Positions 41,511 through 50,383 of a DNA stretch of 64,000 bases are shown here, in pieces. A program made the position numbers and the translations under genes. Origin of the DNA: Promethearchaeia archaeon. GTDB lineage: Archaea > Asgardarchaeota > Lokiarchaeia > Sigyniarchaeales > SOKP01. Where the stretch lies: positions 32,001 to 96,000 of the forward strand of contig JAHQWK010000020.1 of the NCBI GenBank assembly GCA_029856145.1, read 5' to 3'. The number at the start of each line of letters is the position of its first letter. The stretch's first letter is position 1. Below the pieces are notes generated by a model, which made no database searches, was not told the origin of the DNA, and saw nothing but the letters and a program-made list of their open reading frames with translations.

Positions 41511-42320
41511 TTATCCTTCTCCTTCTTCATTTCCGTGTAGAGATTCAGTTTCAGTAGAGAGTTCATTATCATCTGGGGTTTCACTACTCGATACTTCTTC
41601 AATTCCTAATTGTGTAACCATAGCACGTTTCAAATCAGTTTTATTTTTTGGTAACCCAAACATATCTGCATATTTATCAGTGGTGGTTAGTTCGTGGGAT
41701 CTTCCCTTTTTTACAGCATTTATAAACCCATTATCTATGAGATATTTTACATGTTCATATGCGCCAGTACCTCTCAATTTAATAACCATTGATTTCAAAA
41801 CTGGCTGCTTCAAAGCAATAACTGTTAAAGTTCTCAAATATCTTTCTGCTATTGCTCCTCCTTTAGCAAATTTAGAAACTTTTTCAGTATATTCTGGTTT
41901 AATTTGCATTTGATATCTATCTCCAATTTGTGCAATGACAAGAGCAGTAGAGCGTTCTAAATAATCAAAAGCTACTTCATTTACTAATGCTTCCACTTCT
42001 TTCTTAGGAAGTTCCAATTTTGTCGATATTTCTTCTATGGTTAGGGGTCTTCCAGCAGCGTACAAAGAAGCTTCAATTAAATTTCGATGGAAAATCCTTA
42101 CTTGGTTTTTTAATAATTCTTCATCAAGAATTGTGGTTTCCGAAGTGTCTTCAATCAAATTGGTTTGTAAATCATCTTCTATATCTTCGGCTTCCTCAAA
42201 TTCTTCTATTAATGGAGTTTCTGATTTTAAACTAGATTCTCCACTTAAATTAATTTCTTCTATTTTTTCTAAATCTTCTTCTTGTTTATCATCAAGAGCA
42301 TTTTCGTGATTTTCTTCCAA
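41511..42320 (-). CDS. scpB: Segregation and condensation protein B (kite subunit) with acidic N- and C-terminal tails
   Basis: IEASLYAAGRPL, LRTLTVIALKQPV, LRGTGAYEHV, TTDKYADMFGL. GGTGA SD before TTG. Confidence 0.93.
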   Translation of the reverse strand: MEENHENALDDKQEEDLEKIEEINLSGESSLKSETPLIEEFEEAEDIEDDLQTNLIEDTSETTILDEELLKNQVRIFHRNLIEASLYAAGRPLTIEEISTKLELPKKEVEALVNEVAFDYLERSTALVIAQIGDRYQMQIKPEYTEKVSKFAKGGAIAERYLRTLTVIALKQPVLKSMVIKLRGTGAYEHVKYLIDNGFINAVKKGRSHELTTTDKYADMFGLPKNKTDLKRAMVTQLGIEEVSSSETPDDNELSTETESLHGNEEGEG

Positions 42321-42361: not shown

Positions 42362-43363
42362 TTATTTAACATTGACACTAAAATCTTGAAAATCTTCAAC
42401 TTGAGACAGAGTTAATTTATTCCCAGTTGATAGGAACATTAATGCTAGAAACATACGGACAAAAGAAAATATCCGCCCAATACCACTTTTCTCTTCATTT
42501 TTAATAATATCTGCCAATTCGTAAAATGTAGGTTCTTTATTATTTAGATTAATCGTAGCCTTAATTCGATTGTACCATGATTCATGCAGTTCTTCTACTG
42601 TTTGTTCTCTTCCGCTTATATGTTTAAGAAGTTCTTTAGGGAGTTGTGCTTTAGATTTCATTTGAATCCTTTGTTGTTTTATTTCTTCTTTTCTCATTCG
42701 TCTTCTTCTTAGTTTTTCTTTATTCTGCATAACTTCTATAATAGCAGATCTCATAGCATCAAATAATTCATCTTTTGTGGCTATTTGCATTTTAGGTTGA
42801 ATTGGTTGAGGTAATGCTTTTGGAATGGTCCTACCATGTGCTTGCCTGAATCTCTCCAACTCTTCTCTTTTTTGAATTTGTTCCTCTTCTCTAATTATAC
42901 TTGAAATTTTATAATGATGTAAAACTGCAGAAGTTTTAAGCGCAATTCCCGAAATTTTATAATTTATCAAGTCTTCGTGGAGCATTTTATCGAAAAATTC
43001 ATCAACTAATTTTGCTAAATCATAAAACGCAATTTCTGATTCTTTTGCTATTTCCGAATCTAATAGACTCGAAAATGGTGGTTTTTGCCAGAATTTTAAT
43101 TCAAGCTTTTCTTTCCTCAATAAAGCAAGATCTTCCTCATCATCAAATCCAGCAACTAGTTCTTCTTCTACTTCTTCAATTTCTTGAGATCTATCTGTAA
43201 ATTCAGGATGGGATACGACCTCTTGAAGTAAATCAATTATTTCTTTTTTCTTAGATTTAGAAGGTATTTTTATATTATTTTTCGAGGCAAATTCCTTGAG
43301 TTGTTTAACAGTCCAATCATTAAAATTATATTTTTTAGTAGAATTTTGTTCATTTTCTGATAT
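42362..43363 (-). CDS. scpA: Segregation and condensation protein A (kleisin) with an extra N-terminal HeH/SAP-like module
   Basis: Kleisin N-domain (YDLAKLVDEF...SGIALKTSAVLHHYK) and C-terminal FLALMFL...LSQVEDFQD. The frame is open 81 codons upstream of TTG 43120 to ATA 43363, 6 nt after a GGTGA SD; in-frame TGA lies within that SD. Confidence 0.85.
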   Translation of the reverse strand: MSENEQNSTKKYNFNDWTVKQLKEFASKNNIKIPSKSKKKEIIDLLQEVVSHPEFTDRSQEIEEVEEELVAGFDDEEDLALLRKEKLELKFWQKPPFSSLLDSEIAKESEIAFYDLAKLVDEFFDKMLHEDLINYKISGIALKTSAVLHHYKISSIIREEEQIQKREELERFRQAHGRTIPKALPQPIQPKMQIATKDELFDAMRSAIIEVMQNKEKLRRRRMRKEEIKQQRIQMKSKAQLPKELLKHISGREQTVEELHESWYNRIKATINLNNKEPTFYELADIIKNEEKSGIGRIFSFVRMFLALMFLSTGNKLTLSQVEDFQDFSVNVK

Positions 43364-43390: not shown

Positions 43391-46300
43391 TTATTCTGTA
43401 ATCGTTGGTTCGACATCTTCCAGTTCAAGAAGTCTCTTGGCTTCCTCTTCTAAATCAACACTAAAAATATCTGTTATTCCACTTTGTTGCATTGATACGC
43501 CGTATATTCTATCTGAATTCACAATATTTTCTTCTCTGTGAGATATAACCATAAATTGAGCCTGCGAAGCGAATTCTTTTATGACCATTGAAACACGGTG
43601 AACGTTTGGACCATCGAGCGCAGCATCAATCTCATCCATTACGTAAAATGGAGCAGGATAAAATTCTTGAACTGCAAAAATGAAAGATAATGCTACAAGC
43701 GTTTTTTCCCCACCACTTAAAATTTCTAGTGAACTAATTTTCTTACCTCTTGGTCTTGCTTCGATAGAAATACCCCCTTCAAAAGGTTTATCTGGCCTAT
43801 CTAAGATCATTTTTGCAGAACCCCCTGGAGATAATTTCTGAAAAATCCTTGAAAATTCCCGATTAATTTCATGATAAGCTTTCATGAAAGTGCGAGTTTT
43901 TTCTAACTCAATTTTATCAATCGCATCAAGAATTGACTTTCTTTCTCTTTGAATTGTCTGTCGCCTCATATCTATTTCATCAAATCTTTCTTTGACTGTG
44001 TCATATTGTTGAATTGCCTTCAAATTCACGGGTTCAAGAGTTTTTTTCTTTTTTGTTAATTCCACGATATCCGACTGTAGTTCTGCTTCAATAAGATCAT
44101 CAGTTACTGGCGGCAATGAACCGTATTCTTTAGAACGCTGAAATAAGGTTTCTATTTGGTCAGTACACATTATCTTTTTGGACTCATAATTATTTATTTT
44201 AGAATTTTCCATAGAAAGATCTGATTTTAAATCTGTTATAACTTTCTGATATTGCTTTTGCTTTTTCCATGATTCATCTTTTTCTTGTATATACTTGTCA
44301 ATCTCTTTTTGTTTTTCATCTTTCTTCGCATTTTCATTAGCTAAATCTTCTTTCAATATTTCTAAGTCTTTTGTTATTGATTCAACTTGTTCTTCAGTAT
44401 CCTTTATATCTTGACCCAATCCTATTATCTTTTGTTCTCTCTCTTTATTTTTATTTAATTCATTTAATTTCCCTTGAGATCTTTGTAAATCTTTATTTAA
44501 TTTATTTAATTTTTTCTGAGCTGCTTTTTGAGATTCTAACTCTTGAGATTTTTCATCTCTTAAAGTATTTATAACCTGTTGCTTTTGATCTACATTTTTT
44601 TGAATTTCTTCAACTTGGGAATTTAATCCTTGCATATCATCTTGACAAGTCTTAATTCTATTATTAGCATCTACGTTCTCTTTTTTAATATCTTCAATAG
44701 TGGTGATAATCCTCATCACATTTTGAAGTGCTCTTAGACGGTCCATTGTATCTTCAAGGATTTTGTTTTCAGCATCTATCTGTTTTCGCAAATTCTCGGT
44801 TATTTCCCAGAAATTTTCTTTTCGAATAAGAAGCTCATCAATATTCTTTTGTAGTGAATTTTGTTCAACTTGAATATTTTTTATGTTTTCTTCTGTTTTG
44901 ACTATTATGTTTTTCTTTTCTTCAATAAGAAAATTCAATTTTTCTACATTACCATCAATCTCTACGATATTATCAAATAAATTCGTAATTCCGTGTAATT
45001 CTTGTAACTTTTCTCTTAAATTTTCTAATTCCTTTTGCTTTTTATCAATATCATCTTGAATTTTAGATATATTATCCCAATAGGTATCCTTAAGTTCTTT
45101 CAATTTAATTATCTCAGAATCCAAGTTATTGACTTCTAATTGTCTATTATCGATAATTTCCTTTCTTTCATTTATTTCTTCTTCTGCTTTTTTAATTCTT
45201 TCATTTAATTCAGATTTTCTTTTACCAATTTCTTCAAGTCTTTTATTATAAGATGAAAGGTTTTCAGAAAAATGCTTTACTTGGATTCTAGCCTCAGTTA
45301 ATTGTTGCTCATTTTTATTAAAATCATCTGTTTGAGATTTAATGCTTGCTGAGATCTCTTCCAATTGTTTATATAATTCTTGGCTTTTAGACATAGTTAA
45401 TTTTCTTAAAGAGAGATATACATTTTCAAGAATTTCCATTAGGTCTTGAACAAAATTATCAAATCTAATCGTCGAAGATTGGACTTCAACATCAGCGGAT
45501 TCTTTTACTTTTTCGATTAATTGACTAATTGTATCATCAGCATTATCTGTAAATAACTTTAAAGTTTGCATAATAGAACTAAACATATTTGTCATTTCAG
45601 TAGGTTTTTCTGTATCGGCACCAATGTCCTCAACTGATTTCATAATATCAATTATATCTAGAATAAATTTTTTGAAATCTTCTGCAGAGGTTTCAATTGC
45701 TTCTGCATTTGATTGTTGTATATTACTTTTAATAGATTCTACTGAAATGTTAATATTCTGGGTAAGCATGTTTAAAATTTGAAGAATTCCGGTAATATCT
45801 TTTGTATTTTTATCATATTCTTCTTCAGAAACTTCAATTTTCTTAAGGAGATTTTCTCGTTCTTGTGAAAGATCTTGTAACCGTCTTTGAATATTTTCTT
45901 TTCTGGATTCAGATTTTTCTGATTCACTTGTGACTTTTGAAAGAGTTTTACTTAAGGAATCAATTTGTAGTTCTAATTTATTCTTTTCTCGATCTAATTT
46001 TGTTAATTCTTTTGTAAGGATTTTTAATTCTGTATTGATATTATCAATCTTTGCATTGTTATCATTGATTTCAGATTCAAATGAATAATTCTTCATTTTC
46101 ATTAATTCTAAGTCTTGTTCATTTTTCCTATAGATTGAGTTTTCTTGCTTTAATTTCACTTTTAGATCGTTTAAATCTTTGTTAATATCCTCATTTTCTT
46201 TCAATAATTCTTTTACAGCTTTTTCAGCATCTCTACCTTCACTTAAATCAGTAATTTTCTTCTCGATAGAAATTTTCTTTTCATTTAATTGTTGGATATT

Positions 46301-47842
46301 CGCTTGATTCATTTTAATTTCAGTATTTAATGATGATAAAGAAGCTTGAAAATCTGTCAATTTTGAATTTAATTGATTTTTTACTGCTTGAATACTATTT
46401 ATATTGTTTTCTAAATCTTTTTGACTTTGATTTTCTTTAGATATTTTGGCATTTAAGTCATTAATTCGTTTTCTAATTTCTGATTCTGTCTTTTTTGTTG
46501 CTTCAATGGCTTCATCAATACTTTCGGTATCTTTTTTCAATTTTTCTAGCTCAGTTTCTAATTTTTGCTTCTTTTCCTCATTCTTTTTTATAGTTCCTCT
46601 GAGCATCTTAATTTGAGCGTTATTAGATGAAATATTTTGTTGTATTTTGGAGATTTCTGCTTTAAAAAGAGATTTTTCATCATCAGTATTTTTTATTTGA
46701 AGATCCAAATCAGCTTGGTTTTGCTGTCTTTTTTCAATTTCTTTTTTGGCCTCTTCTATATGATTCTCATAATCTAAAATTTCATTTGAAACACTTTCTA
46801 TTAATGAATCAAAAGTTTGTCCCTCTTCAAGCTTCATTTGTTTACTTTCTAAAGTTCCAATTTCATTAACTAATTTTTCGATTGATTTTTGAGCTAAATT
46901 TAGTGTAGTTTGACTTGATGAAATTTGTGTCTTTACTTGGGTAATATTTTCAGTAATTTGCTCTCTCTCTTTTTCTTTCTCGGTAATTGTTTTTTGAATA
47001 TTATCCATAACAAGTGATTCTTGTTTTAAGATATCTTCTTGTCTATTGATTTTTTCTTGTAATTCTTCAATGATTTTTAAAGAATTTTCGATTTTTCTTT
47101 CTAAATCATCTTCCTCTTGCCGTAACTTTGAAATTTTTAAAGCAATCAACTGAGAATTTAAAAAATTTATTTGATCATCTAATTCCTTCCAAGCTAAAGC
47201 ATCGTTTTTCTCCTTTTCCACTTTTTTCAACTGAGAAGAAACTTCTTTAAAGATCGCTTCAAATTGTCCTAAATCTCTTTCTGCTTTTTCCAATTCTTTT
47301 AACGTAGCATCTTTCATTTCATCATATTTTTGAAGTCCGATTAATTCTTCAATAAATCTTCTACGATCTTCTGCATTCATATGAGTTAATTCCACAATTT
47401 TTCCTTGAAGGACAAATTGATTACTTCCATCTGGATCGATATTAGCCGCTGCTAACGCATTAAGAATTTGTTGGCGAGTAGTTTTTTTTCCATTCATTTT
47501 ATAGCCACCACCACCACCTCTCTTGATAGTTCGAGTAATTTCAAAATCAATGGTGCCTCCTGGAAAAGCATTTTCAGAATTATCGAAATATAGTGTGACA
47601 GAAGCTCTTTGAGAGGGATTTTTTCCTCTTGAACCCGCGAAGATGAGATCTTCAAGACTTTTTGCTCTCATAGTTTTCTTACTTAACCTACCTAACGCGA
47701 AACAAAGAGCATCTATAATATTAGACTTACCTGCCCCATTTGGTCCAACGATGCACGTAAATCCACTAGAAAGTCGAATTGTAACAGTTCTATCTCCAAA
47801 ACTTTTAAAACCACTCATTGAAATTTTTTTAATATAAGTCAA
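43391..47842 (-). CDS. smc: SMC ATPase, 1483 aa, with extended arms and no recognisable canonical hinge
   Basis: GFKSF, GPNGAGKSN Walker A, Q-loop VLQG, PVNLKA, signature LSGGEK, Walker B/D-loop MDEIDAALD, H-switch VISH. Directly upstream of scpA-scpB. Confidence 0.93.
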   Translation of the reverse strand: MTYIKKISMSGFKSFGDRTVTIRLSSGFTCIVGPNGAGKSNIIDALCFALGRLSKKTMRAKSLEDLIFAGSRGKNPSQRASVTLYFDNSENAFPGGTIDFEITRTIKRGGGGGYKMNGKKTTRQQILNALAAANIDPDGSNQFVLQGKIVELTHMNAEDRRRFIEELIGLQKYDEMKDATLKELEKAERDLGQFEAIFKEVSSQLKKVEKEKNDALAWKELDDQINFLNSQLIALKISKLRQEEDDLERKIENSLKIIEELQEKINRQEDILKQESLVMDNIQKTITEKEKEREQITENITQVKTQISSSQTTLNLAQKSIEKLVNEIGTLESKQMKLEEGQTFDSLIESVSNEILDYENHIEEAKKEIEKRQQNQADLDLQIKNTDDEKSLFKAEISKIQQNISSNNAQIKMLRGTIKKNEEKKQKLETELEKLKKDTESIDEAIEATKKTESEIRKRINDLNAKISKENQSQKDLENNINSIQAVKNQLNSKLTDFQASLSSLNTEIKMNQANIQQLNEKKISIEKKITDLSEGRDAEKAVKELLKENEDINKDLNDLKVKLKQENSIYRKNEQDLELMKMKNYSFESEINDNNAKIDNINTELKILTKELTKLDREKNKLELQIDSLSKTLSKVTSESEKSESRKENIQRRLQDLSQERENLLKKIEVSEEEYDKNTKDITGILQILNMLTQNINISVESIKSNIQQSNAEAIETSAEDFKKFILDIIDIMKSVEDIGADTEKPTEMTNMFSSIMQTLKLFTDNADDTISQLIEKVKESADVEVQSSTIRFDNFVQDLMEILENVYLSLRKLTMSKSQELYKQLEEISASIKSQTDDFNKNEQQLTEARIQVKHFSENLSSYNKRLEEIGKRKSELNERIKKAEEEINERKEIIDNRQLEVNNLDSEIIKLKELKDTYWDNISKIQDDIDKKQKELENLREKLQELHGITNLFDNIVEIDGNVEKLNFLIEEKKNIIVKTEENIKNIQVEQNSLQKNIDELLIRKENFWEITENLRKQIDAENKILEDTMDRLRALQNVMRIITTIEDIKKENVDANNRIKTCQDDMQGLNSQVEEIQKNVDQKQQVINTLRDEKSQELESQKAAQKKLNKLNKDLQRSQGKLNELNKNKEREQKIIGLGQDIKDTEEQVESITKDLEILKEDLANENAKKDEKQKEIDKYIQEKDESWKKQKQYQKVITDLKSDLSMENSKINNYESKKIMCTDQIETLFQRSKEYGSLPPVTDDLIEAELQSDIVELTKKKKTLEPVNLKAIQQYDTVKERFDEIDMRRQTIQRERKSILDAIDKIELEKTRTFMKAYHEINREFSRIFQKLSPGGSAKMILDRPDKPFEGGISIEARPRGKKISSLEILSGGEKTLVALSFIFAVQEFYPAPFYVMDEIDAALDGPNVHRVSMVIKEFASQAQFMVISHREENIVNSDRIYGVSMQQSGITDIFSVDLEEEAKRLLELEDVEPTITE

Positions 47843-48018: not shown

Positions 48019-49209
48019 TTACTGATTAAAAATCGTATCAATTATAACCTTTATTTGTTTGGGGTTTATTATTGTAAAGAAAAAATCACAATTTATATTG
48101 TTAAAACCTTTATAAGCATTGTTTTTATAATTAGTTCTTTTTGAGGGTTTAATAATCCCCATATTTAACATCTCTTCAATTAGACTATAAAACTCATTAT
48201 TATTTTTTATACATTCTAAAGATTCACAAGAAAGTTCATAGCATTCCATTAATTCATTAAAGGAAATGTAATAATTCATTTTGCTTACAAAAAAATTCGA
48301 AAGATTATCTAAGAATACAACAGTTAATATATCCTCTTCCGAAAGATAATTTATTATGCTAAATTCATCAGAGATTTGAAATGTATCAAATTCATTCTGG
48401 CAAATTTCTAATAACTCAAAATTACAAGCCCCTTTATTATTTTTTATTGTTGGATATATATCTCGAAGAATTTCAATTCCTTTTCCGGGAACAGGGACAT
48501 ATTCTTCACAAATTAAATCTGTTATATATCTAATTAAGTCTTTATCAATTTCATGTGAAAAACTTAATAGAACTCTTTGTTTAAGAATAGAATAAAGCTC
48601 ATGATATGAGAAAAAGTCTAATTTATGTTTAAAATCAAATTCAGAAAGTAAATCCATTGTACCTGGTTTTAAAAATTTATTTACTGTAGAAATTAAAGTA
48701 ATATTTGTTTCTTTACTAAATTGTAAGAATTTATGAAATATTTCAGGCTCTAAATATTCAATATTATTAAAAATAAAGAACAAATGAGAATCAGTTTTAT
48801 TACAAATAAATTTAAAAGTATTCCATAAGTGGGCAATGTTTGAATTTAAGATGGTTCGATAATCGAAGTTAAAATTAGAAAAGCTTGTTAATTCATTTAA
48901 TAGTGAAAAAATTAATTCTTCAATTTCTTTTTCTTTGCAATCTACACAAACTTTATTAATTTTAAAACAATCTTTGTTTTGCATTAAAAGATCGTTTATT
49001 ACTTTATTTACTATTACTTTTTTCCCAATCCCATTCATTCCGTGATAAAGAACGTTAAGGCAAAACTCGTCAGAAATCGAATCATTTAAAATCGAAAGTA
49101 AAGAATTTTCTTCTTTTTTTCTGTATAATAAGCGTGGTGGGATATAATTTGGGTCAAAGAGAGCTTTGGGGCCTATATAATTTTTATTTACATTGGATTT
49201 TATTATCAA
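48019..49209 (-). CDS. Cdc6/Orc1-like AAA+ protein with degenerate ATPase motifs
   Basis: FDPNYIPPRLLYRKKE N-terminal motif and YSILKQRV lid motif. Walker A is GMNGIGKK, the Walker B position reads FIFNNIE, and there is a wH-like C-terminus. Confidence 0.78.
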   Translation of the reverse strand: MIIKSNVNKNYIGPKALFDPNYIPPRLLYRKKEENSLLSILNDSISDEFCLNVLYHGMNGIGKKVIVNKVINDLLMQNKDCFKINKVCVDCKEKEIEELIFSLLNELTSFSNFNFDYRTILNSNIAHLWNTFKFICNKTDSHLFFIFNNIEYLEPEIFHKFLQFSKETNITLISTVNKFLKPGTMDLLSEFDFKHKLDFFSYHELYSILKQRVLLSFSHEIDKDLIRYITDLICEEYVPVPGKGIEILRDIYPTIKNNKGACNFELLEICQNEFDTFQISDEFSIINYLSEEDILTVVFLDNLSNFFVSKMNYYISFNELMECYELSCESLECIKNNNEFYSLIEEMLNMGIIKPSKRTNYKNNAYKGFNNINCDFFFTIINPKQIKVIIDTIFNQ

Positions 49210-49426: not shown

Positions 49427-50383
49427 CTAATCAAAACTTTCTAATAAATTTTTTAAATTTTCTGCTAACAATGGTAAATATTCATAGGATTTAATTTTTA
49501 CTTTCTTATTTAAACAAAGCGCGACCAAATATAGTCTTGCATCTCCTATATCTAATTTTCTTAGAAAAATAATTCCTTCTTTTTGAAATTCTGAATGTTT
49601 CTCTGGAAATTCTACATTTGTTACAATATCAATTGTATTTATATCCCATTCTTCTAGTTTTTCTAATGCTTGAGTTAGCCTCGGAGCTATAGACTCGCAA
49701 ATTTCCTGATAAGCTTGATTTGTGCTTCTGCTAGCAATTATAAAACAATTCTGATCCAATAGCAGCGTAGAGCTATTATAAGTCTTGCCCATATAATCTT
49801 TCAGTAAGGTTTGAAACATTTCAGATTTGTGAGTAGCATAAAAAGCACCATCAGAGAAAGCCTTCAATAAACTTGGTTCATCATATATTGAAGTTTTTAA
49901 GATAGAAAATTTAACATCTTTAATAATAGATGAAATTTCATGATCTAAAGATTTGATGTTATTAACAATATTTTTATTATTTTTAATATCCGGATCACAT
50001 TTATGTAGTAAGATCAAGAGTTGAAAATTATCAGGGTGTGATTCTGAGGTAATATTTATTATATCTTTAAGAAAAACTAAGGCTTCTTCAAATTTTTTAG
50101 GTGCTTGGATATCTATAACATAAAAAATTGATTGCATTTCCGTAAAATACTTACTTTTTTCACCTATATATATTTTTCTATAACTCTTTTGACCACCTAA
50201 ATCCCAACGGACTATTGTAGTACCTAATAATGAGTTTGTATGAAGAGTTCTTTTTGCCTTTATAGTTGGTTTAACTGTAGTTAGTAAACTAAATTTCTTA
50301 TCTAATATTAATAAAATTGATGTCTTTCCACCACTTTCTAAACCACAGAAAAGTATTTTTTTATACTCTTTTGATTCGCTCAT
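49427..50383 (-). CDS. Arf/Rag-like small GTPase fused to a C-terminal roadblock/longin-like domain
   Basis: G1 GLESGGKTS, G2 KPT, G3 WDLGGQ, G4 HKCD, G5 TSI, then an alpha/beta C-terminal domain (STLLLDQNCFIIAS). Confidence 0.85.
   Translation of the reverse strand: MSESKEYKKILFCGLESGGKTSILLILDKKFSLLTTVKPTIKAKRTLHTNSLLGTTIVRWDLGGQKSYRKIYIGEKSKYFTEMQSIFYVIDIQAPKKFEEALVFLKDIINITSESHPDNFQLLILLHKCDPDIKNNKNIVNNIKSLDHEISSIIKDVKFSILKTSIYDEPSLLKAFSDGAFYATHKSEMFQTLLKDYMGKTYNSSTLLLDQNCFIIASRSTNQAYQEICESIAPRLTQALEKLEEWDINTIDIVTNVEFPEKHSEFQKEGIIFLRKLDIGDARLYLVALCLNKKVKIKSYEYLPLLAENLKNLLESFD

Follow-up and report, generated by a model that had tools for sequence, protein, structure and literature searches.

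The stretch of DNA analysed here (the window, 64,000 nucleotides in all) belongs to a Promethearchaeia archaeon of the Asgard lineage (assembly GCA_029856145.1, contig JAHQWK010000020.1, positions 32,001 to 96,000). It is archaeal and AT-rich, with a GC content of ~29%. One of its open reading frames (ORFs) encodes an SMC protein of 1483 amino acids (aa) with neither a globular hinge nor a zinc hook, called hinge-less (HL) SMC below, and the genes of its kleisin and kite partners, scpA and scpB, lie directly downstream. The reading that we favour, with a probability of roughly 0.58, is that these genes encode a second Smc-ScpAB complex, specific to one order of Loki-type Asgard archaea, in which the hinge would be replaced by the pairing of two helical tips as a four-helix bundle.

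The absence of the two known apical elements is seen at several levels. No match to SMC_hinge (PF06470) or Rad50_zn_hook (PF04423) is obtained in the HL SMC at E ≤ 1, as had been expected in the original prediction, which was made from this DNA alone. The 1505-aa orthologue of the cultured Candidatus (Ca.) Lokiarchaeum ossiferum has no hinge or hook match at E ≤ 10, and PF06470 is found in 0 of 120 homologues, among the matches listed. Comparison by hhalign of HL SMC aa 600–900 (39 orthologues) with the hinge region of 19 canonical Asgard SMCs yields a probability of 0.07%. The hinge search picks up the weak hinge of an SMC5/6-like SMC in the same genome, and it is therefore sensitive enough for the negative result on the HL SMC. 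The segment from aa 193 to 1240 contains just 11 glycines and one proline. The protein has only four cysteines (positions 30, 47, 1066 and 1226), none of them in the middle, and no CxxC motif. The two negative claims of the original prediction, no hinge at the SMC apex and no CxxC hook, are thus borne out.

The heads at the other end of the molecule look ordinary. A motif scan recovers every ATPase motif in intact form (Walker A, Q-loop, signature, Walker B, D-loop, H-loop), and the Pfam SMC_N model matches both the N- and C-terminal ends. The HL SMC scores 608 bits with TIGR02168 (SMC_prok_B), above the cut-off of 567, and 626 bits with the archaeal-type model TIGR02169 (SMC_prok_A), which is below the cut-off of 729, the match being broken into six stretches. 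A Rad50-type head is not recognised, the Rad50 models giving at most 99.5 bits against cut-offs of at least 700 (for the best of them, 99.5 versus 1087), and the scores of the RecN and ASRP models of NCBIfam also fall far under their cut-offs. The resemblance to canonical SMC extends some way into the arms. Confident hhalign alignment to canonical Asgard SMC covers HL aa 1–338 and 1130–1473, which correspond to canonical aa 1–337 and 850–1192. Within the arms, the sole confidently alignable parts are therefore aa 171–338 on the ascending side and aa 1130 onward on the descending side, that is, the head-proximal third of each arm. The middle that does not align measures 791 aa in the HL SMC versus 512 aa, hinge included, in canonical Asgard SMC. 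Each HL arm is ~555 aa long, about 1.6 times that of Bacillus subtilis Smc, which has been given as 344 aa and ~47 nm (PMC5344682).

What stands at the apex instead is an internally duplicated helical element. Two units of 55 aa align there without gaps at 12 of 55 identical positions, as originally proposed, with a BLOSUM62 score of 71. Shuffled sequences score −31 ± 16 (z 6.2), and none of 20,000 shuffles equals the observed value. No other pair of 55-residue segments in the coiled-coil part of the protein comes close, the runner-up scoring 17. When profiles of the two units across orthologues are compared, the probability reaches 96.8% (E 2.4e-10) over 59 ungapped columns, and the duplication signal is kept in all 25 orthologues tested (10 to 18 of 55 identical, z 5.7 to 7.2). 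A similarity so far above chance, and kept in every one of these orthologues, implies that the duplication is real and predates the order; judged by their sequences, the two units are true homologues derived from an ancient internal duplication.

An AlphaFold2 (AF2) model of aa 590–900, computed as a single chain from 39 sequences, gives a structural view of this element. The mean confidence (predicted local distance difference test, pLDDT) is 82 and exceeds 90 in the flanking coiled coil. The model consists of two helices, aa 591–741 and 748–899, joined by a six-residue loop, with zero strands and thus no hinge fold. The tip would accordingly form one antiparallel helical hairpin, with units 1 and 2 as its two strands. 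The duplication proposed in the original prediction is retained, and so is the helical nature of the apical module, which is conserved as well. Its picture of two domains around a short linker has to be revised: in the model, each unit supplies one helix of a single hairpin, ascending for unit 1 and descending for unit 2, and the supposed linker forms the loop at the apex. A long intramolecular antiparallel coiled-coil arm is recognised both in this model and in the SMC arm fragments 5xg2 and 5nnv that it matches.

The leading Foldseek and VIA-align matches of the model are antiparallel coiled-coil hairpins. The top one is the chemoreceptor cytoplasmic domain 2ch7 (Foldseek E 1.6e-4; VIA-align Z 15.1 over 300 residues), followed by PrgA, dynein stalks, Rad50 and SMC arm fragments and the MukB elbow. 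Entries that contain a hinge, 4rsi and 4rsj, come at ranks 9 and 27, with aligned residues unspecified in those rows. The cytoplasmic signalling hairpin of chemoreceptors homodimerises into a four-helix bundle, and, like the HL SMC, it forms a long antiparallel coiled coil folded as a hairpin whose tip region is conserved. The likeness is confined to architecture: no sequence relationship is detected (PDB sequence search E 1.1, no Pfam match of the HL SMC to MCPsignal), and in the HL SMC the loop is variable, the conserved zone lying ~30–60 residues below it. Two other searches were uninformative. A PDB sequence search with the central 220 aa returned helical low-complexity matches only (apolipoprotein A-I, E ~0.02), none of them usable, and an ESM Atlas look-up of aa 665–830 gave best scores of 0.89, no Pfam-bearing cluster and no lead.

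Conservation and composition both set the tip apart from the arms. In the 39 orthologues, a conservation island spans aa 661–840, where column entropy is 0.44–1.3 versus 1.3–1.9 in the arms, and indels in the tip module are confined to the apical loop. Hydrophobic residues make up 40% of the tip module versus 27% of the arms, lysine and arginine together 6% versus 18%, and the net charge of the tip is about −20. Hydrophobic occupancy of the heptad e and g positions is 0.20–0.32 in the tip versus 0.08–0.18 in the arms. Polar residues (Q, N, S, T, D, K) account for many of the invariant positions of the tip, among them S719, N767, S790 and T791. The overall pattern suits a helix with more than one buried face and not a basic DNA-binding surface.

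Further insight into the module comes from its presence in a second protein. Among 1.84 billion representative proteins, a module profile built from 25 sequences matches only 41. These are HL SMCs (1296–1497 aa), fragments, a few chance helical-repeat matches and one other family, a non-SMC protein of ~920–1180 aa restricted to the sister family of archaea. It combines two full tandem modules (~aa 68–219 and 330–470), a non-helical domain (~aa 520–860), a coiled coil and a basic tail rich in lysine and threonine, and has no Pfam match. An example is MCF2141576.1 of Ca. Harpocratesius repetitus (genome G213; L015:5996-9121, minus strand), with P0132, P0133, P0139, P0142, P0144, P0147 and P0148 as relatives. 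The AF2 model of its N-terminal 520 aa has a pLDDT of 87.5 and contains helices only. In a wide VIA-align search, the best matches of this model are solved four-helix bundles, over ranges, known by their first and last aligned residues only, that stretch across both modules, beginning with module 1 and ending with module 2: 4uos (Z 14.2, root-mean-square deviation 3.2 Å, 188 of 188 chain residues aligned), 1nze (Z 12.8, 2.2 Å, 107 of 112) and 7ah0 (Z 12.8, 2.2 Å, 104 of 104). Foldseek was uninformative on the same two-module model (template modelling score <0.2). We read the VIA-align matches as a sign that the two predicted module hairpins of a chain pack against each other, which would be a natural parallel to the pairing of tips from two SMC molecules. 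The tip module may also be a portable association domain, shared with a second family that bears a DNA tail. As a partner of the SMC tip in the present organism, the second-family protein was considered and rejected, the module being found once only in this genome.

The partner genes point to a condensin-type Smc with a kleisin and a kite subunit. The product of scpB is the only ScpB of this genome. The kleisin is too divergent for Pfam, in which no kleisin family match is found for the protein of this genome, but the orthologue of genome G147 matches PF02616 at 1.1e-3. When a profile of five kleisin orthologues is compared with the PDB, it retrieves ScpA chains only, with the N-domain (6ivh, E 1.4e-3) and the C-terminal winged-helix domain (5xns, 4i99, 5h66, 5xg3) in the right order. 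The kleisin also carries an N-terminal Ish1/HeH/Rho_N-like motif (Ish1 2.6e-7), located in an in-frame extension upstream of the first ATG, GTG or TTG start; with these start codons, the ORF begins at 43120. The kleisin orthologues have long lysine-rich N-terminal tails where this genome has the extension. The gene order smc-scpA-scpB is kept in genomes G213, G147, G165 and G089.

The HL SMC is found throughout one order. A search with its central region retrieves 171 protein clusters of ~1470–1490 aa, all from Loki-type metagenome-assembled genomes (MAGs), and its length across the order is ~1475–1505 aa. The tip module occurs in 67 of the 75 genomes sampled from this order (60 of 68 in the family of the present archaeon and 7 of 7 in the sister family) and essentially absent outside it, among 301 Asgard genomes. 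A wider distribution was considered from matches in G193, G205 and MAGs labelled Thor-, Hod-, Hermod- and Odinarchaeota or Nanopelagicaceae, and rejected: these are short contigs with sequences near-identical to Loki-type ones, and the module is absent from four other genomes of the genus of G193, two of them single-contig. Matches outside the order are thus read as misbinning or loose naming. The apparently misbinned or misnamed contigs with an HL SMC include L125 (DATKTW010000114.1, Ca. Nanopelagicaceae bacterium), L069, L074, L079 and L106.

Most Asgard genomes encode a canonical SMC of ~1200 aa (hinge E ~1e-34), and many have a second, weaker hinge match. In the genus of the present archaeon, no hinge match of canonical strength is found in the 21 genomes sampled, the weak match being the only one; the HL SMC is its only condensin-type SMC and the canonical copy has been lost. 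Four further genera (g2, g4, g5 and g7) likewise have only the weak match, with no canonical SMC found. The canonical and the HL SMC occur together in other genera of the order. In the closed genome of Ca. Harpocratesius repetitus (G213) and in G147, each SMC has downstream partners of its own: a kleisin and a long ScpB after the HL SMC, and a short ScpB after the canonical one. The canonical loci (L014:7176-11392 in G213, L017:6372-10542 in G147) have a ScpB of 196–197 aa (PF04079 at 1e-17 to 1e-19), and the kleisin candidate of this canonical SMC is unlinked, with weak PF02616 matches elsewhere in the genome.

In a tree of SMC heads, the HL clade is monophyletic (100% support) and lies inside the canonical Asgard radiation. 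A branch with 100% support in the Shimodaira–Hasegawa-like approximate likelihood ratio test parts the SMC5/6-like sequences from both the canonical and the HL clades, so that the HL SMC does not belong to the SMC5/6-related group. It is a paralogue of canonical, hinge-bearing SMC. A sister relationship with the canonical SMC of the same order, as would be expected had the HL SMC arisen by duplication of that gene, is not recovered in this tree and is not rejected by the approximately unbiased test (p 0.27). The two copies differ in their rates of change: between G213 and G089, the head path length is 0.04 for the HL SMC and 0.25 for the canonical one. Because HL heads change ~6 times more slowly than canonical heads over the same genome pair, the HL complex seems to be the one that cannot be dispensed with. 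The canonical copy, for its part, seems to be under relaxed constraint, in keeping with its repeated loss. One claim of the original prediction, that the complex is an otherwise canonical Smc-ScpAB, does not hold: the arms are ~1.6 times longer, the kleisin is divergent, missed by Pfam and equipped with an HeH/Ish1-like domain, and the SMC is a paralogue that exists beside a canonical SMC with its own ScpB.

Taken together, these data suggest the following mechanism. Ordinary heads and head-proximal arms are retained, and the distal arms and hinge have given way to ~790 aa of antiparallel coiled coil, which ends in a conserved, acidic, hydrophobic-rich helical hairpin. Two such tips would most likely zip side by side into a four-helix bundle, which would hold the SMC homodimer at its far end, in the place of the hinge, while ScpA would bridge the heads and ScpB would bind ScpA. 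The tip being nearly devoid of basic residues, any contact of a canonical hinge with DNA would be lost or relocated. Tip-to-tip dimerisation is in our view the best-supported mechanism, which we infer from the composition and conservation of the tip and from the behaviour of the two-module family; its four-helix form is favoured because the tandem modules of that family superpose on four-helix bundles. The complex would have a condensin-like function.

Several points weigh against tip pairing. The tip itself (~aa 690–810) has a pLDDT of only 57–70 in the SMC model, and its fine structure is uncertain. The hydrophobic enrichment at e and g positions is modest. The evidence for a four-helix bundle comes from another protein family than the SMC, Z scores of ~14 are common for helical models, and the AF2 helices of that family kink at the positions of the invariant polar residues of the SMC. 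Finally, the models are of single chains. The most serious alternative, which we nevertheless consider unlikely, is that the tip does not dimerise at all, the two chains being joined by ATP-engaged heads and the kleisin, and the tip serving as a docking site or as a fold-back regulatory element. Invariant polar residues would be expected at the interface with a specific partner, and the AF2 monomer is a plain hairpin. Moreover, a non-SMC protein with a lysine-rich tail shares the module, which makes heterotypic contacts between modules conceivable. That protein is limited to the sister family and was not found in this genome, and hence cannot be a general partner. No kleisin-bridged SMC is known to have free arms, and the widened hydrophobic face of the tip needs a helical partner, the simplest being a second copy of itself.

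A specialised SMC system with ScpAB-like partners, acting in repair, defence or plasmid control rather than as housekeeping condensin, could be suspected from its unusual architecture and from its coexistence with canonical SMC in several genera. It appears rather improbable, in view of the status of the HL SMC as the sole condensin-type SMC in the 21 sampled genomes of this genus and in g2, g4, g5 and g7, of heads that are the slowest-evolving among the SMCs compared, and of a housekeeping gene neighbourhood with no defence island. That a genuine alpha/beta hinge is present and has diverged too far for sequence models is a very remote prospect. Hinges do diverge in general, and the SMC5/6-like paralogue scores only 27.5 bits on PF06470; against this stand the lack of strands in the model, the scarcity of glycine and proline, the hhalign probability and the fact that the search which finds that weak hinge finds none in the HL SMC. 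An assembly, frameshift or gene-fusion artefact can practically be dismissed, since length and colinear sequence are shared by the 171 protein clusters, from independent assemblies that include closed genomes.

It is useful to situate this putative tip-paired complex among known systems. With canonical prokaryotic Smc-ScpAB (B. subtilis, Pyrococcus) it shares heads with all motifs, alignable head-proximal arms and adjacent kleisin and kite genes, but it differs by the lack of a globular hinge, longer arms, an acidic rather than basic tip and a divergent, HeH-bearing kleisin. Rad50/SbcC is likewise an SMC-superfamily ATPase with a small non-hinge dimerisation element at the apex of a coiled-coil hairpin, a part that the tip would play in the HL SMC; in contrast to it, the HL SMC has no CxxC or metal site, SMC-type heads and no adjacent Mre11 gene. 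A "hinge-less" SMC has been described in marine Actinobacteria (PMC12153180), in an uncultured bacterial clade known from ocean metagenomes, with an SMC-type head and coiled coil and no hinge or CxxC; no tip module, partner genes or paralogue were described there. No relationship with it is detected, the HL tip profile matching Loki-type proteins only. The archaeal SMC5/6-related complex (PMC8665677; bioRxiv 10.1101/2024.01.07.573240) is also encoded by a second SMC operon in Asgard genomes, but it belongs to another clade of the head tree, keeps its hinge and has its own small partner genes. Two evolutionary surveys treat all archaeal SMCs as hinge dimers, one of them noting a third complex in some Asgards, and no description of a hinge-less Asgard SMC was found in the open-access and bioRxiv literature.

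The hinge is treated as universal in kleisin-associated SMC complexes, and the roles proposed for it include those of an entry gate for DNA, a site of DNA binding and a gate for the bypass of obstacles (for example PMC6371919, PMC12647877). In the HL SMC, nature offers a test of the purpose of the hinge. B. subtilis Smc remains functional when its hinge is swapped for the Rad50 zinc hook (PMC5344682; PMC6969161). This chimera (PMC5344682), together with a hinge–hook interchange (PMC6969161), shows that another constitutive dimeriser can stand in for the hinge. Nature has made a replacement of the engineered type, with a different, all-helical element and arms that are much longer, in the archaea most closely related to eukaryotes. 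The broadest version of this proposal is that the whole order runs its main chromosome-organising SMC–kleisin motor hinge-free, closed by a lineage-specific four-helix-bundle tip at the end of arms of ~75–80 nm. We hold it tentatively, at slightly less than even odds. If true, Smc-ScpAB could function in nature without the hinge fold and without the basic surface by which it binds DNA. Most genera of the order have no condensin-type SMC other than the HL SMC, and relatives with both SMCs provide a built-in comparison. As cultured Ca. Lokiarchaeum ossiferum encodes an HL SMC, the need for a hinge is directly testable.

Table. Location in the window of the HL SMC gene, its structural segments and motifs, and the partner genes.
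Feature	Position	Strand	Basis
smc gene, HL SMC	43391..47842	-	ORF; SMC_N 4e-42
N-terminal half of ATPase head, ~aa 1-170	47333..47842	-	motif scan; SMC_N match aa 3-138
Walker A	47723-47746	-	motif scan
R-finger region	47642-47668	-	motif scan
Q-loop	47396-47407	-	motif scan
Ascending coiled-coil arm, ~aa 171-682	45797..47332	-	hhalign segments; AF2 helix begins upstream of aa 591
Repeat unit 1, aa 683-737, predicted ascending tip helix	45632..45796	-	unit alignment, profile comparison, AF2
Apical loop region, aa 738-753 (modelled loop aa 742-747)	45584..45631	-	AF2 DSSP, orthologue alignment
Repeat unit 2, aa 754-808, predicted descending tip helix	45419..45583	-	unit alignment, profile comparison, AF2
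Descending helix continuation, aa 809-840, within conservation island	45323..45418	-	entropy profile
Descending coiled-coil arm, ~aa 841-1290	43973..45322	-	AF2, hhalign segments
C-terminal half of ATPase head, ~aa 1291-1483	43394..43972	-	motif scan
Signature LSGGE	43706-43720	-	motif scan
Walker B	43625-43648	-	motif scan
D-loop	43613-43627	-	motif scan
H-loop	43535-43546	-	motif scan
scpA (kleisin), very divergent, N-terminal HeH/Ish1-like domain	42362..43363	-	orthologue profile vs PDB; Ish1 match
scpB (kite subunit)	41511..42320	-	PF04079 2.7e-33; TIGR00281 94 bits, above cut-off

Two further genes lie just upstream of smc, both on the minus strand. One encodes a protein of Orc1/Cdc6 size (48019-49209), with faint AAA/NB-ARC matches only, and the other a Gtr1/RagA-like and Arf-like small GTPase (49427-50383; PF04670 at 1e-22).

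The same genome (G000) has a second SMC operon on another contig (C9:161731-166386; locus L012:728-5380, minus strand). Its SMC, of ~1139 aa, shows a weak but real hinge (PF06470, 27.5 bits) and scores 193 bits with SMC_prok_A. It is followed by ORFs of 218 and 171 aa with no Pfam match, which are probably its own kleisin and kite, the operon thus probably encoding an SMC5/6-related archaeal complex.

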